Positions 20,976-31,930 of a stretch of DNA of 32,000 nt are shown here, one piece after another. The translations under genes and the position numbers were made by a program. The notes under the pieces were generated by a model. The model was not told the DNA's origin, ran no database searches, and worked only from the letters and a program-made list of their open reading frames with translations. How positions within the stretch are numbered: the first letter of the stretch is position 1; each line of letters starts with the position of its first letter. The DNA lies in the NCBI GenBank assembly GCA_041649575.1, contig JBAZMW010000002.1:60001-92000 (forward strand), read 5' to 3'. This DNA comes from Patescibacteria group bacterium. GTDB lineage: Bacteria > Patescibacteriota > Patescibacteriia > 2-01-FULL-39-33.

Positions 20976-20986
20976 TAAGAAAATAG

Positions 20987-21017
20987 AAAAAGCGACCAAA
21001 ATCGCTTTTTTCATTTT
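20987..21017 (+). terminator. Rho-independent terminator after galU
   Basis: aaaaagcga-ccaaaa-tcgcttttt followed by tcatttt. Confidence 0.65.
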
Positions 21018-21028
21018 AGCTTTGTTTG

Positions 21029-21037
21029 TGTTATAAT
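21029..21037 (+). promoter_or_regulatory. Extended -10 promoter element (TGTTATAAT) 7 nt upstream of the hydrogenase beta-subunit ATG; implies a leaderless or near-leaderless transcript
   Basis: tgttataat at 21029-21037, ATG at 21045, and no SD between them. Confidence 0.4.
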
Positions 21038-21044
21038 ATATCCC

Positions 21045-22022
21045 ATGCTAGACCAAAATATTAAAAAGTTTTTGGCTAAACTCTCGCAGTCGTTTCTTTT
21101 GTTCGCCCCGCAACCGTTGGGGAGTGTTGTTAAAATAAAGCCAGTTGCAGAGATTGGCAATATCGACTGGTCGGGCGCTATGCCGCTCAACTCCTGGAAA
21201 GAAATTTTTTTACCAGCCAGAGAAAGATTATTCGACCTAAAGAAAAATTCTTTTTTTGAGTCCAAGACGGATTATCCGGCTACCGCCTGCATTGGCATTA
21301 ATGTTTTGGATTTAAAGGCCTTTACTTTATTTGAACAGGTGTTCGGCCGCGATGCTTATTATCAACAGCGGCGTCGCAATCTGTTGCTTGTCGGCTACAG
21401 CGCCCAGTGGCCCAATGATTACAAAAAATACAAAGTTTTCAGTCATAACTGGGAAGAAGATATTTTAGAGCATCTGGTTTTTGATATTTTTATAATTCAA
21501 CTGAAGAACGATAAAACCAAGATTTACTCCGGTTCAGAGAAAGGGCAATTGATTCTAGAAAAATACGGCCTGAAAAATTACACGCATTTGGAATTTGCCG
21601 GCGCTGTCAAAGAGCAAGGCCCGGATAAAAAAATGTTGGAGCTCAAGGAAAAGCTGGCTAAGGCCTCCAGCCACAAACTCTGGAACGAACTTGATAAAAT
21701 TTGCCTGGCCTGCGGTAAATGCTCGATCGCTTGCCCCACTTGTTTTTGTTTTGATTTATTTGATAAAGTCGACCCCGATAAGAATTGTCGCGAGCGTTAT
21801 TGGGGCAATTGTTTTTATAACGATTTTTCCAAGGTGGCCGGCGGTTTTAAAGAGCTAGACACAGTCAAAAAGAAGATTTATTTTTGGTATACCCACAAAT
21901 TTGTCCGCATTCCGCACGAATATTCTCTGCCCGGTTGTGTCGGTTGCGGCCGTTGCACTCGTGTTTGTCCGGTGGGAATTGATATTGCCAAAAACGTTTC
22001 TATTATCGGTAAAATCAGATAG
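21045..22022 (+). CDS. [NiFe]-hydrogenase group 3b (sulfhydrogenase-type) beta subunit, 4Fe-4S dicluster protein (AsrA-like)
   Basis: CLACGKCSIACPTCFC and CVGCGRCTRVCPVG ferredoxin motifs in the C-terminal half. The AsrA/HydB-like length and its position before an AsrB-like gene support the call. Confidence 0.8.
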   Translation: MLDQNIKKFLAKLSQSFLLFAPQPLGSVVKIKPVAEIGNIDWSGAMPLNSWKEIFLPARERLFDLKKNSFFESKTDYPATACIGINVLDLKAFTLFEQVFGRDAYYQQRRRNLLLVGYSAQWPNDYKKYKVFSHNWEEDILEHLVFDIFIIQLKNDKTKIYSGSEKGQLILEKYGLKNYTHLEFAGAVKEQGPDKKMLELKEKLAKASSHKLWNELDKICLACGKCSIACPTCFCFDLFDKVDPDKNCRERYWGNCFYNDFSKVAGGFKELDTVKKKIYFWYTHKFVRIPHEYSLPGCVGCGRCTRVCPVGIDIAKNVSIIGKIR

Positions 22023-22027
22023 TTTCA

Positions 22028-22849
22028 ATGAACAATATTTACCAAGCTCAACCAGCCAAAATAATCAGTGTCGTTCAAGAATCTTTAGACACCAGGTTTT
22101 TTCGCTTGACCTTTGTCAACAAAAAATTACAAAAGGAGCTGGCTTTTCTGCCGGGCCAATTCGTGCAAATCGGTTTGCCGGGCTGGGGCGAGTGTCCTAT
22201 TAGCATCTGTTCTTCCCCCTCCAACGCCAATAAATTCTTTGAGTTAGCCATCAGAAACGTCGGTACGCTGACTAATGAGCTTAGTCGGTTGAAAGCCGGG
22301 GAAATAGTGTTTATCCGCGGGCCATACGGCAACGGTTTTGATATCGATTTTTCCAAAGATAAGCCGCTAGTGATAATCGGCGGTGGTTGCGGTTTTGTGC
22401 CACTAAGGCCACTGATTCAGGATTTTTTGGCTGGCCGTTTGTCTAGTTCCAGCCTGCAGATATTTTATGGCTGCCTCAATGAAAAAACCCTGTTGTTTAG
22501 AAAAGAATATCATCTTTGGAATCGCCGCGCCGAACTCAACATTATTTTGGAAAAGCCGTCCAGAGAATGGAAGGGCAAAAAAGGCCTGATTACAGATCTG
22601 CTGGCCCAAAAAAAGATTTCGGCCAGCTCGGTGGCTGTTCTGGTGGGCCCGCCAGTGATGTACAGGTTTGTCATCAAGGAACTCAAAAAAAGAAATCTGA
22701 AAGATGAAAATATTTATTTGTCGCTGGAGCGGAAAATGTATTGCGGCACTGGTGTTTGCCAGCATTGTGCCATTGGCCCGTATTATGTCTGTAAAGATGG
22801 CCCGGTTTTCTCTTGGAGCCAGCTGAAAGGTTTGCCTCAAGCGATTTAA
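22028..22849 (+). CDS. [NiFe]-hydrogenase group 3b gamma subunit, FAD/NAD(P)-binding oxidoreductase with C-terminal 2Fe-2S (AsrB/PyrK-like)
   Basis: FLPGQFVQI (FAD-binding barrel), IIGGGCGFVPLRPL (NAD(P) binding) and C-terminal CGTGVCQHCAIGPYYVCKDGPVF. Confidence 0.85.
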   Translation: MNNIYQAQPAKIISVVQESLDTRFFRLTFVNKKLQKELAFLPGQFVQIGLPGWGECPISICSSPSNANKFFELAIRNVGTLTNELSRLKAGEIVFIRGPYGNGFDIDFSKDKPLVIIGGGCGFVPLRPLIQDFLAGRLSSSSLQIFYGCLNEKTLLFRKEYHLWNRRAELNIILEKPSREWKGKKGLITDLLAQKKISASSVAVLVGPPVMYRFVIKELKKRNLKDENIYLSLERKMYCGTGVCQHCAIGPYYVCKDGPVFSWSQLKGLPQAI

Positions 22850-22852
22850 TTT

Positions 22853-23365
22853 ATGCTGTTAACGGTTTTGTTCTTAATAATTATGGTGATTCTTGGCTCT
22901 GCCGCCGTTGCCGGTTTGTCTGCTGCTCCTTGGGTGCCAATGAGGAAAGCGGATGTGATACGAGCCGTGGAATTAGCTGAAGTGAAAGCCGGTGACAGGG
23001 TTTACGATTTGGGTTGTGGTGACGGTCGGTTGGTTTTTGCCGCCAGTGGTCGCGGTGCCAAAGCGATTGGCTTGGAAATTTCCTTATTGCCTTTTGTTAT
23101 TGCCAAAATCAGAAGCTGGTTTCAGCCGCTGACCAGGGTGTCATTTAAAAGTTTTTTCAGACAGAATTTGGAAGATGCCGATGTGGTTTTCGTTTTTTTG
23201 ATGAAAAAGATTTATCCGAAACTGGCGACAAAACTAACCAAAGAATTGAAGCCGGGAGCCAGAATCGTGGTTTACTGCTGGCCGATTGATGAATTAAAAA
23301 GCAGTCTGATTGAAAAAAATAAGCCAACCGAAAAAGATTTGCCGCTCTATCTTTATCAAATTTAA
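22853..23365 (+). CDS. Membrane-anchored class I SAM-dependent methyltransferase
   Basis: N-terminal TM helix MLLTVLFLIIMVILGSAAVAGL. Motif I VYDLGCGDGRLVFAAS and a post-I acidic GLEIS. Its start is 3 nt after the gamma-subunit stop. Confidence 0.75.
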   Translation: MLLTVLFLIIMVILGSAAVAGLSAAPWVPMRKADVIRAVELAEVKAGDRVYDLGCGDGRLVFAASGRGAKAIGLEISLLPFVIAKIRSWFQPLTRVSFKSFFRQNLEDADVVFVFLMKKIYPKLATKLTKELKPGARIVVYCWPIDELKSSLIEKNKPTEKDLPLYLYQI

Positions 23366-23382
23366 TAATTAATTTAAAAACT

Positions 23383-23523
23383 ATGTTTGGAGTCGCCCTC
23401 ATTATCGTCGGAGCCATTTTTCTGCTCAAAGGTCTGGGCCTGTTATCCATGTTCCAATGGGACTTGATCTGGCCAGTCGTTTTAATTGTCATTGGTATCT
23501 TGATGGTTTTCAAAAGGAGGTAG
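23383..23523 (+). CDS. 46-aa two-helix membrane protein (DUF5668/LiaF-N-like)
   Basis: MFGVALIIVGAIFLLKGLGLLSMFQWDLIWPVVLIVIGILMVFKRR. Below the ORF-track length cut-off. Pattern G..L..GL.......W..WP..LI..G resembles DUF5668. Confidence 0.45.
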   Translation: MFGVALIIVGAIFLLKGLGLLSMFQWDLIWPVVLIVIGILMVFKRR

Positions 23524-23553
23524 CTCTCCCGGCCATAAGCTATAAATCTATTT

Positions 23554-24834
23554 ATGTGCCTCACTCTGCCGGCCAAAGTTGTTAAAGTCAAAGGGTTACA
23601 AGCCGAGATTTTAGCCAGTGGCGCAAAACAAGTGGTGAAAATAGGCACTGCCGCTAAAATTAGAGCGGGGGATTGGGTGCTTTATACCAATAATTTTTTA
23701 ATAAAAAAAATCAGTCAGACTGAAGCCGAAGAAATTTCCGCCTTGCTTGGTTCCTATCAAGGCGTTACCGAAGCTAAACTAGAAAAAAAATTAAAGGACA
23801 TTCTAACGGCCTCGTCCGTTCGCGATCTAAACGTCGAAGAGATTGAATATCTTTTGGGAGTTGATGGTCAAATTTCACAGGCAGCTCTTTTTTCACAGGC
23901 CAATGTGGCCAGAAAAGCCAATATCAAAGATCATATCTGTATCCATGGCATTATTGAGTTTTCCAACCACTGTCAAAACGATTGTCTTTATTGCGGCCTA
24001 AGGAGAAGTAATGACAAAGTTAGCCGTTACCGCCTGTCGCCGGAAAAAATAATCAAAATAGCAGTGGCTGCTGTCAATAATCGCGGTTACAAGATTCTGG
24101 TCTTGCAATCGGGCGAAGACGATTATTATAGCGATGGTAAAATAGAATTAATTATAAAAGAAATAAAAAAACAGGCCAGAGTTTTCATTTATTTAAGTAT
24201 TGGTGACAGAAGTGAAGCGGCTTACAAAAAATTCAAAGTTGCCGGCGCCAGCGGTGTCCTATACCGTTTTGAAACTTCCAACCCCGATATCTATGTCAGC
24301 CTGCACCCCGGCGACTCTCTGGAAAAAAGATTGGAAAATTTAGAAATGATGAGAAATCTGGGTTATGCGCTTTCCTCCGGGCCACTCATTGGCTTGCCAG
24401 CTCAAACATTAAAAGATTTGGCCAGTGATATAACACTAATGAAAAAGCTGGGTGTGTTTATGCCCTCAATGGGGCCGTTAATTCCTTCAGCCGAGACGCC
24501 GTTGGCCGGTGAAAAAAAGATTGATTTTGGCTTAGTTTTAAAAATGATTGCTGCCAGCCGTTTGGTTATGCCCAAAGCCAGAATTCCCGTTACTACTGCC
24601 ATGGAGACTTTGGCGCGAGGCGAGGGAATAAGTATCGATGAAGCTAGACAGAAATGTTTTATGGCCGGCGCTAATTCCGTAATGTTGAATCTGACTCCTG
24701 AAACCCAACGGCAGAAATATTATATTTATGAAAACAAATTTTTTGATGTCGAAAAGAAATATGAGAATTGGGGGTTGTTTAAGGGAGAATTGAGTTATCG
24801 GATGTTGGAAGAAGAGTTACGGGTCAGTATTTAA
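23554..24834 (+). CDS. Fusion protein: N-terminal HypC/HupF hydrogenase chaperone domain + HydE-like radical-SAM enzyme
   Basis: Residues 1-~70, MCLTLPAKVVKVKGLQAEILASGAKQVVKIGTAAKIRAGDWVLYTNNFLIKKISQTEAEEISALL, give the HypC pattern: Met-Cys start, G.xA.V, GDWVL, EAxE. The rest has IIEFSNHCQNDCLYCGLRR (CX3CX2C), VLQSGEDDYY, RFETSNP, GLPAQTLKDL, GPLIPSAETPLAG and IPVTTAMETL, the pattern I recognise from HydE (BioB/PylB/HmdB clade). Confidence 0.8.
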   Translation: MCLTLPAKVVKVKGLQAEILASGAKQVVKIGTAAKIRAGDWVLYTNNFLIKKISQTEAEEISALLGSYQGVTEAKLEKKLKDILTASSVRDLNVEEIEYLLGVDGQISQAALFSQANVARKANIKDHICIHGIIEFSNHCQNDCLYCGLRRSNDKVSRYRLSPEKIIKIAVAAVNNRGYKILVLQSGEDDYYSDGKIELIIKEIKKQARVFIYLSIGDRSEAAYKKFKVAGASGVLYRFETSNPDIYVSLHPGDSLEKRLENLEMMRNLGYALSSGPLIGLPAQTLKDLASDITLMKKLGVFMPSMGPLIPSAETPLAGEKKIDFGLVLKMIAASRLVMPKARIPVTTAMETLARGEGISIDEARQKCFMAGANSVMLNLTPETQRQKYYIYENKFFDVEKKYENWGLFKGELSYRMLEEELRVSI

Positions 24835-24879
24835 AATAAAAAAAGAAGCAGCTTCAGGCCGAACTCGGCCCGAAGCTGC
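24835..24879 (-). terminator. Rho-independent terminator of the minus-strand phosphatidyltransferase gene (convergent with the HypC-HydE gene)
   Basis: gcagcttcaggccga-ac-tcggcccgaagctgc (about 14 bp, one mismatch). On the minus strand it is followed by ttcttttttta. Confidence 0.75.
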
Positions 24880-24898
24880 GAATGATCGCCTCTTGCCA

Positions 24899-25456
24899 TC
24901 ACACTTGCTGCTGAACCACTATCTTGCGGTAGTAGTCCAGCCCCGACCAGATGCAGACCGCGCTGATGAGTATCCCAGTGGTGTAGTACAGCATTTCCCT
25001 GAAGCCAGAGAGCGGACTTAAGTAGCTGCCCGGAACTGGTAGCGCCGCCACCAGGGAGCACATGCAAGTCAAATTGACCACGGTCTTGATCTTGCCCGAG
25101 GTCTTGGCGCCGATCACCTCGCGCGCGTAGTAGTGGCGCAGTATGGTGGAGAAGGTGTCGCGCAAGACGATGATGATCACCGGCAAGAGATGGATCATCC
25201 CATGAAAGTACAGCGGGACAAAAATCAAGATCAGCACTTTATCGGCCAGCGGATCCAGCCATTTGCCGGCAGCCGTGGAGCCCCAAAGACGAGCCGCGAG
25301 ACCATCGAGCTTATCGCTTATGGCGCACCACAACACCAGTACAAACAGCAAGACGTGTGACTGAGGCGAGATTGGCGAATAGCACAGAATAATCAGCGCG
25401 GGGCCTGTCAAAACGATTCTCGACAGGGTGATAAAATTGGCAATATTCCTTTTCAA
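24899..25456 (-). CDS. CDP-alcohol phosphatidyltransferase (PgsA-like)
   Basis: Signature D-x2-DG-x2-AR...G-x3-D-x3-D in SDKLDGLAARLWGSTAAGKWLDPLADK. Multiple TM helices. TTG start preceded by gaggaggg. GC-rich relative to neighbours. Confidence 0.8.
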   Translation of the reverse strand: MKRNIANFITLSRIVLTGPALIILCYSPISPQSHVLLFVLVLWCAISDKLDGLAARLWGSTAAGKWLDPLADKVLILIFVPLYFHGMIHLLPVIIIVLRDTFSTILRHYYAREVIGAKTSGKIKTVVNLTCMCSLVAALPVPGSYLSPLSGFREMLYYTTGILISAVCIWSGLDYYRKIVVQQQV

Positions 25457-25564
25457 GGTACGCCCTCCTCAAGGGTTGAAAATCAGAATCAGCATTACTA
25501 TCAAATTCTATTTAAATTATTTTTATAAGTCAATATAGCTTAGCTAATTAATAATTAGAAAATT

Positions 25565-26116
25565 ATGAAAAAAATTATCACCTTATTTTCCCTAATCTTT
25601 TTTTTGCTGGTGCCATTTTTTTCTGTTTTTGCAAATCCGCTCACTCCAATTCAAACGCCACCTTACAATTATATAGCACAAGTAGTCATTTTAATTGTCT
25701 CGGTAATAATTGAGGCCGTCGTTTTATTAGTTCTGGCCAAGTGGCTGATGAGGGAAGTAGGAAAAAATAATAGTACAAGAAAAATTATTCTAACCGGTTT
25801 GATATTAAATTGTATTTCAATTCCTTTCTTTTGGTATATTTTGTTGTCGCTTTTTAACCAGATTTTGGCAAATTTTTATTTTGGTTATTCCAGATTTGTT
25901 ATTTATATTGTCTGTGAATTACTCATTCTTATATATGAGGCGATAATTTATAAAAATATTTTTAAGATTAGTTTTAGAAAAGCGTTGATTCTATCATTTT
26001 GTTGCAATCTAGCCTCACTGCTATTCAGTTTGTACGCGATAGCGCCAAATAGCGTCGTTATGAATTTTATAGGTTGGTCTATATTTACGATTCATCCTTA
26101 TCAATACCCCTTTTAA
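25565..26116 (+). CDS. Hypothetical polytopic membrane protein
   Basis: 183-aa ORF with an N-terminal signal/TM segment and about five hydrophobic helices. Very AT-rich. No family recognised. It ends 18 nt before the hydrogenase delta-subunit ATG. Confidence 0.55.
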   Translation: MKKIITLFSLIFFLLVPFFSVFANPLTPIQTPPYNYIAQVVILIVSVIIEAVVLLVLAKWLMREVGKNNSTRKIILTGLILNCISIPFFWYILLSLFNQILANFYFGYSRFVIYIVCELLILIYEAIIYKNIFKISFRKALILSFCCNLASLLFSLYAIAPNSVVMNFIGWSIFTIHPYQYPF

Positions 26117-26134
26117 TTTTTGATTACTAATTAC

Positions 26135-26950
26135 ATGGCCAAGGCAAAAAAACCACGATTAGCAATTATCGGCCTGACATCTTGTGAGGGCTGCCAGTTT
26201 TCCATGCTCGACAAAGGCCGGAGATTCTTGGGTTTAATGAAAAATTTTCAGGTAAAGGAATTTCGTCTAGTGGAGGATGAAAAAATGCTCGAAGAGAATT
26301 TTGACCTGTGTTTGGTTGAGGGCAACCCCGTCACCAAAGAAAACATTAGATTGCTCAAAGAAATGCGGCGGCGGTCGAAATTGTTAGTAGTTATTGGTAA
26401 TTGCGCGGCTTTGGGTGGTGTCTGGGAGCTCAAAAATTATCAGAATAAGAAAAAGACCATCAGGCAGGTTTATAAAAAAATAAAAGTAGCCAATCCTGAC
26501 ATTAAGGAAGTGGATAATTTTGTTAAAGTTGACTTTACCATCCCCGGTTGTCCCATAGACGGTGAGGAGTTTATGGAGCTGGCCTATCAGCTTTTAAGTG
26601 GCCGGATTCCGAAAATCCCTCAGAATCCTGTTTGCCATGAATGTCAAACAAGAGGTTATGAGTGTTTACTGCAGCAAGGAGAGATTTGTCTCGGGCCGAT
26701 TACTCTGGGTGGTTGTCGGGCAGTGTGCCTCAAAAGCCGGCAGGCCTGCTGGGGTTGCCGTGGATTGTTTGAGGGCGCGCGAGTGGAAAATTTAATGAAG
26801 GAACTGCTGTCAAAATTTCCTCGCGAACAGGTTTATCGGGTGATGGAGGTGTTTGGAGCGAGAGATAGTATTTTGAAGGAGTTGGAACAGGAAGAAAAGC
26901 CAGCTGAAATTAAAAATGTAAAACTAAAAGTTAAAAATTCTAAAAAATAA
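26135..26950 (+). CDS. [NiFe]-hydrogenase group 3b delta (small) subunit
   Basis: RLAIIGLTSCEGCQFS (proximal-cluster Cys motif of NuoB-like small subunits), GNCAALGG, IPGCP, and C-terminal Cys clusters CHECQTRGYEC...CLGPITLGGC...CWGC. ATG at 26135 is preferred to TTG 26120. Confidence 0.85.
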   Translation: MAKAKKPRLAIIGLTSCEGCQFSMLDKGRRFLGLMKNFQVKEFRLVEDEKMLEENFDLCLVEGNPVTKENIRLLKEMRRRSKLLVVIGNCAALGGVWELKNYQNKKKTIRQVYKKIKVANPDIKEVDNFVKVDFTIPGCPIDGEEFMELAYQLLSGRIPKIPQNPVCHECQTRGYECLLQQGEICLGPITLGGCRAVCLKSRQACWGCRGLFEGARVENLMKELLSKFPREQVYRVMEVFGARDSILKELEQEEKPAEIKNVKLKVKNSKK

Positions 26951-26954
26951 AGCT

Positions 26955-27275
26955 ATGGATAAACAAGAAACAAAATCAGCAAAACCAGAATTACGTGTAT
27001 CTAGGGATTGTCAAATCGCCTTGGTCACTAAAATGCAAATAGAGCTGATGAAGATGGACGGCATTGAAGATACCGACGAAGAAGCCAATCAAAAAGCGCT
27101 TGAGTGGGTTGAAAGCAATTCCCCCAAGTTCAGAGAAATTTTTGAGGAGATGTTAGCCAGAATCCAGGACGATCCTCGTTACGGAGAAATAATTATAAAG
27201 GCTGAGGCCGGGTATACTGATGATTTAGTAGAAGCGATGCTGCCGGAAATCAGAACTCGCATGATGATACTTTAG
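26955..27275 (+). CDS. Hypothetical acidic protein
   Basis: 106-aa ORF tightly packed between the delta subunit and the PLP enzyme. Predicted helical and Asp/Glu-rich. No family recognised. Confidence 0.5.
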   Translation: MDKQETKSAKPELRVSRDCQIALVTKMQIELMKMDGIEDTDEEANQKALEWVESNSPKFREIFEEMLARIQDDPRYGEIIIKAEAGYTDDLVEAMLPEIRTRMMIL

Positions 27276-27308
27276 CGGTTTAAATAAAAATATATTAATT
27301 TGAGTTTT

Positions 27309-28331
27309 ATGTCATTATCTAAAGCGGAGGCTAAAATTCTGCAGTCAATTATTGTGTCTTCAGAAAATAATCCCAGTCGACCAGAATTTCCGGCCGATGA
27401 TCCTAAATTTCCCGCCACCCCAACTTATAAAATTAAAGTGCCAGGCTTTTCTAATGTTTGGCTCAAAGATGAAAGCCATAATCCCACCGGAACCCATAAA
27501 GATCGGATGGCTTGGGAAATAATTGTTACTTATCGTGATTTTTTATTGACCCAAAAACGAGGGCAAATTAAAGGTATTCTACCGGCCGTGTCAATTATTT
27601 CCTCTGGATCGGCGGCTGTCGCCATCCAAACACAACTACGGAAATATCATTTGCCAAATCTCAAAGTTTTAGTCGACTCTTATCTTAATCAGGAAATTGT
27701 AAATTCACTCAAAAAAATTGGCTGTAGAATTTATAAAACTGATTTAAGCAAAAAACCATTTCATTGGAAGGAAATTTTAGAGTTGACTCATAATCCAAAT
27801 GGTTTTGATATTACTTCTAATGAGGCTTTAGACCCGGCTATGAGATTTTATGACTGGCTAAGTTATGAGATAATTAATAATTCACCAGACTATTGTTTTA
27901 TTCCTTTCGGTACCGGCAATCTTTATGAGAATATTTTGAATATTAATAAAAAAGAAGTTTCAACTAAAAATCATGACCCTCGATTCAAGGGTAAGGTTGA
28001 AATTCTTAGGAATTGTAATTTTTTTGGCGTGACGACAAATAATCCAAGATCCCGAGCCGAAAAACTTTATTCGCCTCACTTGCCTTTTGTCCATTACGAT
28101 GAGCAGTGGATTAGGCTGTATCGGCATGCCGGTTATTGTGGTCCAAAATCAAATGTTTATTTATTGAAGGAGCAATATCTTAATGAGGCAATGAAAATTG
28201 CCGTTGCTCAAAAGATAAATTATGAGCCTTCTGGTATCTCTGGACTGGCCTTGCTTCTACAAATAAAAAATAAACTTCCTAAAAATAAGAAGATTTTAGT
28301 TATTAATACTGGGAAAACTAAATATATTTAG
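27309..28331 (+). CDS. Fold-type II PLP-dependent enzyme (threonine synthase/cysteine synthase superfamily), specificity unknown
   Basis: WLKDESHNPTGTHKDRMAWE (PLP-lysine motif, cf. NPTGSFKDR), ISSGSAAVAIQ (cf. SSGNxG) and PFGTGNL (phosphate-binding loop, cf. GTGGT). ATG at 27309 is preferred to TTG 27300. Confidence 0.7.
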   Translation: MSLSKAEAKILQSIIVSSENNPSRPEFPADDPKFPATPTYKIKVPGFSNVWLKDESHNPTGTHKDRMAWEIIVTYRDFLLTQKRGQIKGILPAVSIISSGSAAVAIQTQLRKYHLPNLKVLVDSYLNQEIVNSLKKIGCRIYKTDLSKKPFHWKEILELTHNPNGFDITSNEALDPAMRFYDWLSYEIINNSPDYCFIPFGTGNLYENILNINKKEVSTKNHDPRFKGKVEILRNCNFFGVTTNNPRSRAEKLYSPHLPFVHYDEQWIRLYRHAGYCGPKSNVYLLKEQYLNEAMKIAVAQKINYEPSGISGLALLLQIKNKLPKNKKILVINTGKTKYI

Positions 28332-28379
28332 ACATAGGCGGTGTTTTGATATAAAATAATTTAAAAATATTAATTTATC

Positions 28380-29678
28380 ATGCGTATCCAAATAAATCAC
28401 ATTGGTAAAATGGAAGGCCACACGGACTTCGTGGCCGAGATTTTGAAAGGTGATGTCAAATCAGCCAAACTGATGACCACCGAAGGTGCTCGTCTGATAG
28501 AGGGCATTTTGGTCGGCCGTAATTTTTACGAGGCGCCGATTATCACTTCTCGCATCTGTGGTATCTGCCCGGTGGTTCATAAAATTTCCTCCATTAGGGC
28601 GCTGGAGAACGCTTTAGCTATTAAGCCCAGTGAACAGACAATTAAATTAAGAAAACTAATGCTGATGGCGCAAACCATTCATAGCCACGCCTTACATTTG
28701 TTTTTTTTGTCTTTGCCGGATTTTTTCAACCTATTGGACGACTTTAAATTTATTGCCAACCATAAAAAAGAAACTGATTGCGCTATTAAGGTGCGTGAGT
28801 GGGCTTTGAAAGTTATTGAAACTGTTGGCGGACGGGCGGTACATCCGATTGCTTGTGAAGTTGGTGGCTTTAAGGTTTTGCCCGACAAAAAAGAATTGAA
28901 AGATTTGGCTGATCAATACGAAAACATTCTAAAACAGGCACTGTGTCTGGTGAATCTGACTATCAAAATAAAATTTCCCAAATTTAGCCGGCCCACGACC
29001 TTCATTTCTTTGACCAATGAAAAAGAATACGCCTTTTATGATGGCGATATTAAAATTTTAAATAAAAATGGCCAGACAAGGATTATTAAGGCCAAAGATT
29101 TTACCAAGAATATTAAGGAGATCGAAGAGCCCTATCGCGCCGCCAAATCGGCTGAGTTAAAGGGTGAGCCGTTTATGGTCGGCGCTTTGGCGCGACTAAA
29201 TAACAATCATAGCCAATTGAATCACTTGGCCAAGGGAATTCAAAAAGGTTTAAAATGGAAGTTCCCGCAGTATAATTCTTTTGAAAATATTACCGCCCAG
29301 GCTATTGAAATCGTCCATTGTCTAGAGGAAGCCAAAAAATTACTTGACGATTTAGTTAAAAATTTGAAAAATGAGACCAGTCAGGCCGAGAAGCTCGGCT
29401 TAATTGGTCAGGCCAATCCCTTGGGACGTGAGACAAGTGGCTGTGACGCCAGCGAGGCGCCGCGTGGCACCTTGTATCATTATTACGCCATTGATAAAGA
29501 CGGCTATATCAAGGATTGTCAGATTATCACGCCGACGGTGTCTTTTTTAAAAAATTTGGAAGCAGATATTATTGCCTATATCCCGGATTTGAAAAAAATG
29601 TCGCCCGAAAAATGTTCACGCAAAATCCGCGCCCTTATTCGCGCCTATGATCCTTGTATTAGTTGCGCCACACATTAA
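28380..29678 (+). CDS. [NiFe]-hydrogenase group 3b alpha (large, catalytic) subunit
   Basis: N-terminal Ni-Fe ligand motif RICGICPVVH. The C-terminal ligand motif DPCISCATH is immediately followed by the stop codon. Confidence 0.92.
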   Translation: MRIQINHIGKMEGHTDFVAEILKGDVKSAKLMTTEGARLIEGILVGRNFYEAPIITSRICGICPVVHKISSIRALENALAIKPSEQTIKLRKLMLMAQTIHSHALHLFFLSLPDFFNLLDDFKFIANHKKETDCAIKVREWALKVIETVGGRAVHPIACEVGGFKVLPDKKELKDLADQYENILKQALCLVNLTIKIKFPKFSRPTTFISLTNEKEYAFYDGDIKILNKNGQTRIIKAKDFTKNIKEIEEPYRAAKSAELKGEPFMVGALARLNNNHSQLNHLAKGIQKGLKWKFPQYNSFENITAQAIEIVHCLEEAKKLLDDLVKNLKNETSQAEKLGLIGQANPLGRETSGCDASEAPRGTLYHYYAIDKDGYIKDCQIITPTVSFLKNLEADIIAYIPDLKKMSPEKCSRKIRALIRAYDPCISCATH

Positions 29679-29684
29679 ATAGCA

Positions 29685-29696
29685 TATAGCTTATGG
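29685..29696. repeat. Left arm of the inverted repeat flanking the four-helix-bundle gene
   Basis: tatagcttatgg is the exact reverse complement of 30075-30086. It lies in atagc/ataagc-rich flanks. Confidence 0.7.
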
Positions 29697-29716
29697 CGTA
29701 TAGCAAATAGTTTTTT

Positions 29717-30073
29717 ATGGCATTTAGATTCGAAAGTTTGGAGATTTGGAAAGAGGCGATTAATTTTTCTAGTTCTACTTATAAAATTACTCGTCAGTTT
29801 CCCAAAGAAGAACTGTTTAGTTTATCTAGTCAGTTAAATCGGGCTGCGATTTCTATTTCGGCTAATATAGCCGAGGGCTCGGCAAGTGATAGTGTAAAAG
29901 AGTTTAGAATGTTTCTGAATATTTCCATTAGATCTGGCGTCGAAGTAATATCTGAATTATTTATAGCTAAAGAAAGAAGCTATTTATCAGACGAAGAATT
30001 CGGCGAGTTATACAATACTGGAGAATTATTAATAAGAAGAATTTCCTCATTTCGCAATCAATTAAAATTATAA
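29717..30073 (+). CDS. Four-helix-bundle protein (23S rRNA intervening-sequence protein family)
   Basis: FESLEIWKEAINFSSSTYKITRQFPKEELFSLSSQLNRAAISISANIAEGSA matches the conserved core of this family. Confidence 0.85.
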   Translation: MAFRFESLEIWKEAINFSSSTYKITRQFPKEELFSLSSQLNRAAISISANIAEGSASDSVKEFRMFLNISIRSGVEVISELFIAKERSYLSDEEFGELYNTGELLIRRISSFRNQLKL

Positions 30074-30074
30074 A

Positions 30075-30086
30075 CCATAAGCTATA
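30075..30086. repeat. Right arm of the inverted repeat flanking the four-helix-bundle gene
   Basis: ccataagctata is the reverse complement of 29685-29696. Confidence 0.7.
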
Positions 30087-30096
30087 AGCCATCCTT

Positions 30097-30351
30097 ATGC
30101 ACGATTTCCACTTAGCCGACATAATCTATAAAACAATTTTAGATTACGCCCAAAAAAATAATTTGAAAAAAATCACCAAAGCGGTGATTGATTTGGGACA
30201 GATTATTGAGCATGGTGAGGAGGTGTTGGCGGAAAATTTGGATTTTAATATCAAAATGTTGGCCCAAGGTGGCCTGGCCGAAGGCTTAGAGCTGGTTATT
30301 AACAAAACAGCCGGTGATAGCTGGGTGCTAAAGGAAATAGAAGGAGTATAA
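30097..30351 (+). CDS. HypA-like nickel metallochaperone lacking the zinc-finger domain ('mini-HypA')
   Basis: MHDFHLADIIYKTILDYAQKNNLKKITKAVIDLGQI...LAEGLELVI aligns by eye with HypA (MHE..L......v...a...g..kV..v.l.iG......e.L.F.f......t.aEga.L.i). The 84-aa protein has no cysteine, so the CxxC...CxxC Zn site is absent. Confidence 0.65.
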   Translation: MHDFHLADIIYKTILDYAQKNNLKKITKAVIDLGQIIEHGEEVLAENLDFNIKMLAQGGLAEGLELVINKTAGDSWVLKEIEGV

Positions 30352-31545: not shown

Positions 31546-31930
31546 TTTTGTCATTGCGAGCGGAGTGAAACGCAGCGAAGCAATCTTTTAGATAAGACAG
31601 ATATGGCCAAATATTATTACGTTTATGTTTTGACTAATGCCAACAATTATGTTTTATACACAGGAGTCACAAATAATTTGCAGAGAAGGTTATGGGAACA
31701 CAAAAGCGGTAAGGCGGACGGTTTTACTAAAAAATATAAGTGTAAAAAATTGGTTTATTATGAATATTCGGAGTCAATAGGCGCAGCCATAAATAGAGAA
31801 AAACAAATTAAGGCCGGCTCAAGAAAAAAGAAATTGGAATTGATAAACAATTTTAATCCGCAGTGGTTGGATTTGGGGCTGGAGATGTTTTAAGAGATTG
31901 CTTCGCTTTGCTCGCAATGACAAAATAAAA
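31546..31930 (+). mobile_element. GIY-YIG gene cassette bounded by ~30-nt imperfect inverted repeats
   Basis: The left end is ttttgtcattgcgagc[ggagtgaaacgc]agcgaagcaatct (31546-31586). The reverse complement of the right end (31893-31925) is ttttgtcattgcgagc[a]aagcgaagcaatct. The ORF fills the space between them. Confidence 0.6.
31603..31893 (+). CDS. GIY-YIG nuclease family protein (UPF0213-like)
   Basis: YYVYVLTNANNYVLYTGVTNNLQRRLWEHK (GIY...YIG...R..EH core) and REKQIK further downstream. Confidence 0.85.
   Translation: MAKYYYVYVLTNANNYVLYTGVTNNLQRRLWEHKSGKADGFTKKYKCKKLVYYEYSESIGAAINREKQIKAGSRKKKLELINNFNPQWLDLGLEMF

Follow-up and report, generated by a model that had tools for sequence, protein, structure and literature searches.

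A HypC–HydE fusion in a [NiFe]-hydrogenase locus of a Patescibacteria genome: a candidate hybrid of the [FeFe] and [NiFe] maturation systems

Introduction

How might a [NiFe] hydrogenase be matured in a gene neighborhood that lacks most of the known maturation genes? The question is raised by a locus on contig JBAZMW010000002.1 of the Patescibacteria assembly GCA_041649575.1. The 32-kb stretch analyzed here (positions 60,001 to 92,000 of the contig, numbered from its first letter and called the window) is predicted, from the families of its proteins, to encode a four-subunit group-3b-type [NiFe] hydrogenase whose structural genes are interleaved with others. One of the interleaved genes encodes a HypC domain joined to a HydE-like radical S-adenosylmethionine (SAM) domain. 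The original prediction for this locus, made by a model from the letters alone, was that the radical-SAM protein, a pyridoxal-phosphate enzyme, a methyltransferase and small acidic and membrane proteins might together replace the missing Hyp functions.

The [NiFe] and [FeFe] hydrogenases are a textbook case of convergence, and each is thought to own a private machinery for cofactor assembly. For the [NiFe] enzymes, HypE and HypF turn carbamoyl phosphate into cyanide on the HypCD scaffold, and Fe(CN)2CO is carried on Cys2 of HypC and handed to the large subunit. For the [FeFe] enzymes, HydG splits tyrosine to form the synthon Fe(Cys)(CO)2(CN), which is bound by HydE; a 5'-deoxyadenosyl radical then attacks the cysteine sulfur of the synthon. 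To our knowledge, the enzymatic source of the CO ligand in anaerobically matured [NiFe] enzymes is not settled.

A hybrid [FeFe]/[NiFe] maturation module is essentially undescribed. In the full-text literature outside subscription-only papers no prior analysis of the fusion system was found, and its sole mention is one sentence on an “unusual HydE-HypC fusion” in a [NiFe] operon of Ca. Centrionella anaeramoebae (bioRxiv 10.64898/2026.04.11.717937). That preprint contains no analysis, distribution or mechanism of the fusion and no mention of HydG or HypD/E/F (bioRxiv 10.64898/2026.04.11.717937). In a survey of hydrogenases in archaea from 2024, HydE/F/G figure solely as [FeFe] maturases (PMC11216029).

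The reading preferred here, with a probability of roughly 0.55, is that radical-SAM chemistry of the [FeFe] type supplies a HypC carrier, giving a hybrid maturation route for [NiFe] enzymes whose core set would be the HypC–HydE fusion (with HydG in relatives) and a shortened HypA (mini-HypA).

Results

The HypC–HydE fusion protein

The fusion protein begins MCLTLPAKV, in line with the HypC signature MC[LY][TA][IL]P found among the fusions. Pfam assigned HupF_HypC to residues 1–65 (PF01455, 3e-13), followed by Radical_SAM and BATS. Against PDB sequences, the N-terminus matched HypC over residues 1–63 (2z1c, 1.5e-6), and residues 82–401 matched Thermotoga maritima HydE (TmHydE) end to end with 240 bits. 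An AlphaFold2 (AF2) model of the protein has a predicted local distance difference test score (pLDDT) of 90.5 and a predicted template-modeling score (pTM) of 0.90, with beta-strands over residues 2–53 of the HypC part. Its top Foldseek matches are TmHydE structures holding an Fe(CO)2CN species (7o1t) and complex-B (7o1o), at 39–40% identity and template-modeling scores of 0.86–0.89. The score against the HydE model TIGR03956 is marginal (257.0 bits, cutoff 254.6), while the L012 homologue reaches 371 bits; the HmdB model TIGR03957 matched at 2e-17. The protein is currently named [FeFe] maturase ([FeFe] H-cluster maturase by PGAP) or biotin synthase by annotation pipelines.

Cys2 and the CX3CX2C motif of the radical-SAM domain (C140/C144/C147) are invariant across 14 diverse fusions. 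An alignment of 69 fusions likewise has an invariant CX3CX2C motif, with Cys2 conserved to at least 90%. With one exception, the best 120 clusters listed at 90% identity share the HypC plus Radical_SAM architecture. The fusion loci found through GTDB belong to Patescibacteria, Omnitrophota, Thermodesulfobacteriota, Planctomycetota, Margulisiibacteriota, Micrarchaeota and Woesearchaeota.

In a neighbor-joining tree of 87 HydE domains, the 24 HypC-fused sequences formed one bipartition in 50/50 bootstraps. Where canonical HydE has 81 columns that are at least 90% conserved, the fusions keep 40, and they have invariant residues of their own: Cys129, His131 (Arg in canonical HydE), Phe239 (canonical His) and Gly234 (canonical Arg). 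Because the fusions have their own clade, have changed half of the canonical conserved columns and share these private residues, they are a distinct monophyletic subfamily derived from HydE and not ordinary HydE.

One member carries a further domain. In a Candidatus Falkowbacteria contig (CAVZGV010000006.1; L012:10001-12646), a single open reading frame (ORF) of 881 residues is a HypC–HydE–HydG triple fusion, with scores of 631 bits against TIGR03955 (HydG), 371 against TIGR03956 and 51 against TIGR00074. The gamma and delta genes of a group-3b hydrogenase lie on either side of it.

Genes that accompany the fusion

Neighborhoods of fusion homologues were drawn from metagenomes and GTDB species genomes. 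Genes within ±10 kb were counted at 24 fusion loci and 63 canonical HydE loci (Fisher p values), and the proteins of the window were mapped onto about 25 related loci. A [NiFe] large subunit of group 3b or 4 was near the fusion in 13/24 loci and near canonical HydE in 0/63 (p=2e-9). HydF showed the opposite pattern (0/24 against 27/63, p=4e-5), as did the [FeFe] hydrogenase HydA (0/24 against 10/63, p=0.056). HydG did not differ significantly, being found at 12/24 fusion loci and 38/63 canonical ones. The sole weak HydF match at the fusion loci, in L029, was the FeoB GTPase domain and was rejected. The hybrid module occurs widely, and its link to [NiFe] operons has good statistical support.

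The fusion also lies beside genes for membrane-bound [NiFe] hydrogenases of group 4, of the Complex1_49kDa type, in an Omnitrophota metagenome-assembled genome (L015:1549-12611) and in a 1.77-Mb uncultured bacterium (L018:10001-21197). The L015 fusion has mini-HypA, HycI and HydG alongside. Because of these two loci, the module is not restricted to group 3b.

The mini-HypA of the window keeps the N-terminal nickel-binding motif (MHD; MHD or MHE in relatives). The window and the six relatives aligned have lost the CxxC...CxxC zinc module, about 34 residues long; L008 alone retains it, and this locus has HypB as well. A HypA without the zinc finger lies downstream of alpha in all nine further loci of the candidate phyla radiation (CPR), and also in the Omnitrophota loci. 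Full-length HypA was found only together with HypB; elsewhere HypA lacks the zinc module. The protease HycI, in turn, is present only where the large subunit bears a C-terminal tail (9–34 residues).

With E. coli queries, no match to HypD, HypE or HypF was found in any of about 90 fetched loci, about 25 of them fusion loci. This bears on the possibility that canonical HypC/D/E/F, encoded elsewhere in the genome, do the real work and that the fusion is an auxiliary factor, perhaps a donor of CO under anaerobic conditions or an additional HypC paralogue specialized for enzymes of group 3b or 4. The visible sequence is 32 kb of a contig of at least 235 kb, hosts with large genomes such as the Thermodesulfobacteriota of L011 probably have canonical Hyp proteins for other hydrogenases, and the window has no HydG, so that a self-sufficient radical-SAM route is not evident there. 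Nevertheless, the relatives place the fusion among the maturation genes themselves. The order in L008 is HypA-HypB-fusion-HydG-HycI, about 4 kb from an alpha-delta-gamma-beta block on the opposite strand, and in the Omnitrophota loci L034 (group 3b) and L015 (group 4) it is hydrogenase-HycI-miniHypA-fusion-(Rex)-HydG. In these three loci, the places where hypC-D-E-F normally sit are thus taken by HypA (with or without HypB), HycI, the fusion and HydG, without HypD/E/F. Moreover, the maturation set of Ca. Centrionella, with a genome of 1.52 Mb, is listed as HybD, HypA, HypB and the HydE-HypC fusion only. An auxiliary role is judged unlikely on this evidence, though it deserves real weight.

The HydG proteins adjoining the fusion are full length (460–631 bits against TIGR03955, cutoff 312). 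The CX3CX2C motif is present in 12/12 and the C-terminal auxiliary-cluster motif CX2CX22C in 10/12. A specialized clade of fusion-linked HydG was considered and rejected, as these proteins are not monophyletic relative to canonical HydG (0/50 bootstraps). The HydG proteins of the two Omnitrophota loci (L034:12076-13578 and L015:11112-12611) have the C-terminal cysteine pattern CTAGYRCGRTGEC...C, not the usual CTACYRxGRTG...C.

It could be argued that the fusion and HydG mature an [FeFe] hydrogenase whose genes lie elsewhere, that the HypC-like domain takes the place of HydF and that the [NiFe] linkage is incidental. The name given by PGAP and the fact that the associated HydG is indistinguishable from canonical HydG would fit this explanation. 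It is most plausible for DPANN archaea: in L014 and L016 (Micrarchaeota) and in L019, L020 and L023 (Woesearchaeota), the fusion is followed by HydG, with no hydrogenase gene in the available flank, and some DPANN have minimal [FeFe] hydrogenases, a few genomes with incomplete HydEFG sets (PMC11216029). The DPANN fusion could serve either a [NiFe] or a minimal [FeFe] hydrogenase. For the module as a whole, however, [FeFe] maturation is improbable, given the counts of [NiFe] large subunits and HydA above, the embedding of the CPR fusion between gamma and delta structural genes, its co-occurrence with HypA and HycI, and the HypC signature of its N-terminal domain.

Gene order in CPR genomes and the missing HydG

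Close relatives, with fusions 54–64% identical to that of the window, keep the order beta-gamma-[methyltransferase-peptide]-fusion-delta-alpha-...-miniHypA-PGK. In the window and in L001, L005, L006, L007, L012, L013, L088/P0008 and L091, the fusion gene falls between those for gamma and delta; the fragment L093, in which it directly precedes delta, brings the further CPR loci to nine. The fusion and delta genes overlap in L001 and L093 and are 1 nt apart in L006 and L013. The beta gene is syntenic in all related CPR loci.

In P0008 (fusion 61% identical) the order is fusion-543aa-HydG-delta, and HydG is on the same contig as the fusion in the relatives P0007 and P0012 as well. The 543-residue ORF between fusion and HydG (L088:1488-3119, and also on the 37.7-kb contig of P0008) has no Pfam match. 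The window instead has a PgsA-like gene and memb183, a membrane ORF, between fusion and delta. HydG, the regular partner of the fusion in relatives and absent from the window, had been missed by the original prediction.

The absence of HydG from its ancestral slot, together with four compositionally foreign insertions, could mean that the system is decaying in the window lineage, with HydG lost, insertions accumulating and the hydrogenase no longer matured. Yet the structural genes and the fusion are intact in the window, with every catalytic motif present, and the HydG-less arrangement recurs with intact genes in L001, L005, L006, L013 and L091 (fusion 54–64% identical). Such persistence in relatives implies long-term purifying selection, and decay is distinctly improbable. 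Because catalytic motifs are intact down to 54% fusion identity, the HydG-less operons as a group are under selection; in these genomes HydG is either encoded elsewhere or not required.

The hydrogenase locus in the window

The features of the locus are collected in Table 1. All four subunits have Pyrococcus Shy/Hyd subunits (ShyA-D and HydA/B/D/G) as their best NCBIfam matches, all under the equivalog cutoffs (alpha, 232 against a cutoff of 700). The metal ligands of alpha are RICGIC at residues 58–63 and a C-terminal DPCISCATH, with which the protein ends exactly, in line with the claim that the large subunit needs no C-terminal cleavage. For delta, a TTG start is possible at 26120 and the first ATG is at 26135. 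All 13 ORFs originally described were confirmed in position and strand and their families hold, with slightly different starts for delta and the PLP enzyme.

Table 1. Features of the hydrogenase locus (window coordinates). GC3, GC content at third codon positions; PLP, pyridoxal 5'-phosphate.
Feature	Position	Strand	Match or remark	GC (%)	GC3 (%)
Bidirectional hairpin upstream of promoter-like site	20986-21011
Promoter-like site before beta, TTTTCA-18-TATAAT with upstream TG	21008..21037	+	consensus match alone
Hydrogenase beta, 325 aa, Fe-S, ShyB/HydB/AsrA-like	21045..22022	+	Fer4_22 9.9e-27; ShyB 7e-31
Hydrogenase gamma, 273 aa, FAD/NAD(P)-binding, 2Fe-2S, DHODB Fe-S domain	22028..22849	+	PRK08345 236 bits, 4.8e-70; ShyC 4e-58
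Small class-I SAM methyltransferase, N-terminal hydrophobic helix	22853..23365	+	aKMT-related
46-aa two-helix membrane peptide, LiaI/LiaF-TM	23383..23523	+	PF18917 8e-9
HypC (aa 1-65, Cys2) + HydE-like radical-SAM domain (aa ~82-401), 426 aa	23554..24834	+
14-bp GC-rich hairpin between converging fusion and PgsA genes	24848..24879		likely terminator of both genes
PgsA-like CDP-alcohol phosphatidyltransferase	24899..25456	-	family scans	54	74
memb183, 183-aa multi-pass membrane ORF	25565..26116	+	no family	31	31
Hydrogenase delta (small) subunit, 276 aa	26120..26950	+	Oxidored_q6 1.8e-23; ShyD 7e-44
Acidic 106-aa four-helix protein	26955..27275	+	no family
Fold-type-II (PALP-fold) PLP enzyme, active-site Lys in NPTGTHKDR	27300/27309..28331	+		35	29
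Hydrogenase alpha (large) subunit, 432 aa	28380..29678	+	NiFeSe_Hases PF00374 1.7e-41; best match ShyA/HydA
23S_rRNA_IVP four-helix-bundle cassette (IVP)	29717..30073	+	family match 8e-31	33	27
Mini-HypA, 84 aa	30097..30351	+	PF01155 29.8 bits, cutoff 28.9
Hydrogenase genes				42-45	45-51
Whole window				42

Neither Pfam nor tblastn, the latter run with two HydG sequences and with HypB/D/E/F/HycI of E. coli, found any HypB, HypD, HypE, HypF, endopeptidase or HydG in the 32 kb, in agreement with the earlier statement that the HypC domain and a reduced HypA are the sole recognizable Hyp parts. The remaining window genes encode glycosyltransferases, a subtilase, RmuC, nucleotide-salvage proteins and PGK, and include no further hyp or hyd gene. 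Rfam and tRNA scans of the window gave no match. Between 15001 and 18000, two 1-kb bins have about 51% GC, against 42% for the window; they span genes of the purine/uridine phosphorylase family and aminoglycoside-2''-adenylyltransferase-like and phosphoribosyltransferase genes. A small GIY-YIG gene lies at 31603-31893.

The tight spacing on which co-transcription had been proposed was seen again, as same-strand intergenic gaps in the locus are 3–48 nt. A single transcript is not favored: the PgsA gene, which is inverted, is bordered by gaps of 64 and 108 nt, and the hairpin at 24848-24879 likely ends both the first plus-strand unit and PgsA. Because of this strong hairpin and the wide PgsA gaps, at least two plus-strand transcription units are likely at the locus.

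Other genes interleaved in the locus

The methyltransferase matched NF041081 with 62.8 bits (cutoff 200; 3e-17) and the PDB structures 5fa8/5jwj of aKMT, a protein-lysine methyltransferase of archaea (2.4e-17 over residues 25–155 for 5fa8). Homologues follow gamma in L001, L005 and L006 (1e-56 to 7e-60), and a 170-residue ORF has the same place in L091. Homologues of the membrane peptide, 47 residues long, lie directly upstream of the fusion in L001, L005, L006 and L091. In L001, L006 and L013, a paralogous aKMT-like methyltransferase of 180–186 residues follows alpha (L001:13368-13925, L006:13499-14059 and L013:13357-13899); the slot of this second methyltransferase is held by the IVP cassette in the window.

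For the acidic protein, five weak homologues were found among 1.84 billion representative proteins. Those with readable context, 3/3, lie directly after delta and before alpha, with delta 70–77% identical to that of the window. Its AF2 model has four helices (pLDDT 87) and no PDB fold match. Because all three placed homologues sit between delta and alpha, it is a genuine, fast-evolving operon member in a sub-clade. By their positions in relatives, the methyltransferase with the 46-residue peptide and the acidic protein are best regarded as sub-clade-specific members of the operon.

The other interleaved genes differ in distribution and composition. The PgsA-like gene is common only to the window and its two closest relatives, L005 and L091, and occupies the slot held by HydG in relatives. 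Memb183 has no Pfam or NCBIfam family, no homologue in the related loci and a cluster of its own; it is a probable window-specific insertion. An IVP cassette lies right after alpha in three genomes (the window, P0008 and L012:16727-17110), which suggests a preferred IVP insertion site.

The PLP enzyme is of an unusually conserved family, with 466 relatives in JGI metagenomes. Among the best 80, at 72–84% identity, it is hydrogenase-linked in two loci only (L173 and L096), and no homologue was found in the related fusion loci. Its usual neighbors vary and include FabG/FabZ, a class-IV aminotransferase and enolase/iPGM. Profile comparison with the PDB gave weak similarity to CysM/OASS (E about 3e-4, N-terminal third); the family is also weakly similar to threonine synthase. 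From its distribution, the enzyme is probably not a dedicated maturation factor. In L173:5223-8300 (Ga0233437_1000021, a 449-kb contig) the order is delta-PLP-alpha, and the PLP gene overlaps the alpha start by 4 nt; the hydrogenase subunits are 46–48% identical to those of the window, and neither the fusion nor HypA is present within the ±6 kb flank. At another PLP locus, L160, the neighbors PTH2, NurA and HerA are of archaeal type and a HycI protease lies 3 kb away.

Other genomes have ALAD, HIT, a molybdo-oxidoreductase, a KTI12-like kinase, PDDEXK and PRT (phosphoribosyltransferase) in the same positions. Memb183, PLP, IVP and PgsA are accordingly read as insertions, in a locus where each genome has gathered lodgers of its own.

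The proposal of an alternative maturation set stood in part: the fusion and mini-HypA are syntenic with the hydrogenase in relatives, and the remaining membership was wrong. Of the genes whose synteny was followed, the methyltransferase, peptide and acidic protein are conserved in sub-clades; memb183, PLP and IVP are not. Of the two unknowns put forward for homology and structure comparison, the 106-residue protein turned out to be a rare family after delta and memb183 gave no match. That the radical-SAM, PLP, methyltransferase, acidic and membrane proteins all act as one system is highly improbable and already largely refuted by synteny: despite the tight gaps, the acidic protein always placed after delta, the methyltransferase and peptide conserved in a sub-clade and the delta-PLP-alpha order of one distant genome, memb183 has no homologue in the related loci, PLP is rarely linked, the lodgers vary and deviate in composition, and many functional-looking operons, such as L013 and L034, have none of these genes.

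Discussion

A possible hybrid maturation route

The hybrid route preferred here would proceed as follows. HydG would make CO and CN- from tyrosine and release Fe(Cys)(CO)2(CN), as in [FeFe] maturation. The HydE-like domain of the fusion would bind this organometallic iron species and process it by radical chemistry. Dimerization on HydF would not take place; instead, a mononuclear Fe-CO/CN unit would be passed to Cys2 of the tethered HypC domain, which would deliver it to the large subunit, bypassing HypD, HypE and HypF. Mini-HypA would then insert nickel without HypB. A protease would not be needed in CPR because the large subunit ends at its last metal-binding motif. In the window lineage, the ancestral HydG position between fusion and delta would have passed to PgsA and the membrane ORF when HydG was lost from it, and HydG would be encoded elsewhere in the genome or dispensable. 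A stronger form of the proposal, in which HydG and the fusion are a complete tyrosine-derived route to Fe(CN)2(CO) that replaces HypD/E/F in CPR, Omnitrophota and possibly DPANN, with HydG perhaps dispensable or external in the sub-clade of the window, is put forward tentatively and falls short of an even chance.

Several observations weigh against the hybrid route. Hydrogenase genes are missing from the available flank in 10/24 fusion loci, DPANN included, and some DPANN lineages are reported to have [FeFe] hydrogenases (PMC11216029). The absence of HypD/E/F covers ±10 kb only, with single E. coli queries at E<=1e-3. In the 32-kb window, tblastn found neither HydG nor a remnant of it, which leaves the proposed source of CO and CN unaccounted for here; among the best 120 HydG matches none could be assigned to the contigs of the window, L001, L005 or L091, which is suggestive. 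Lastly, the HydG product has two CO and one CN while the [NiFe] site has one CO and two CN, so that an extra ligand-exchange step must be assumed.

If the hybrid route is correct, [FeFe]-type HydG and HydE feeding a [NiFe]-type HypC would break the separation of the two maturation systems, and two supposedly independent systems would have been recombined in nature. Anaerobically matured [NiFe] enzymes would gain a defined enzymatic source of the CO ligand. The automatic “[FeFe] maturase” names on many CPR proteins would be corrected, with consequences for metabolic reconstructions of CPR and DPANN that infer [FeFe] capacity from HydE and HydG matches. Heterologous production of [NiFe] enzymes might be possible with a far smaller gene set, namely the fusion, HydG and the 84-residue HypA.

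Comparison with known systems

The structural genes belong to the same four subunit families as those of the Pyrococcus furiosus sulfhydrogenases I and II (group 3b, beta-gamma-delta-alpha). Unlike the P. furiosus block, that of the window is split by accessory genes, and its large subunit has no C-terminal extension.

With the canonical system of HypA-F plus endopeptidase (E. coli hyp/hycI), the locus and its relatives share the HypC module with its essential N-terminal cysteine, the MH(D/E) nickel end of HypA, HycI where the large subunit is tailed and, in the relative L008, HypB. Likewise, the large subunit to be matured is of the standard [NiFe] kind, bearing the RxCGxC and DPCxxCxxH motifs. 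In contrast to the canonical system, HypC is here fused to a radical-SAM enzyme of about 340 residues and is not free-standing with HypD. No examined locus has HypD, HypE or HypF, the zinc module is missing from HypA, and neither HypB nor the protease occurs in the window.

The [FeFe] maturation system of HydE, HydF and HydG is represented by a full-length homologue of T. maritima HydE and, in relatives, by canonical HydG, mostly with the auxiliary-cluster motif. The fusion departs from that system in having no HydF or HydA nearby, in its own HydE clade with half of the conserved positions changed, and in being joined to a [NiFe]-type chaperone inside [NiFe] operons.

A parallel for such recruitment is offered by the HmdB/HcgA-type enzyme of [Fe]-hydrogenase cofactor synthesis, which, like HydE, is a radical-SAM enzyme of the BioB/HydE/PylB branch and was recruited for an iron-carbonyl cofactor of a hydrogenase. 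The fusion is much less similar to it than to HydE, and HmdB has a different target and no HypC domain. The operon of Ca. Centrionella, from a reduced symbiont genome, is like the window in having this kind of fusion with HypA; it also has HypB and HybD (bioRxiv 10.64898/2026.04.11.717937).

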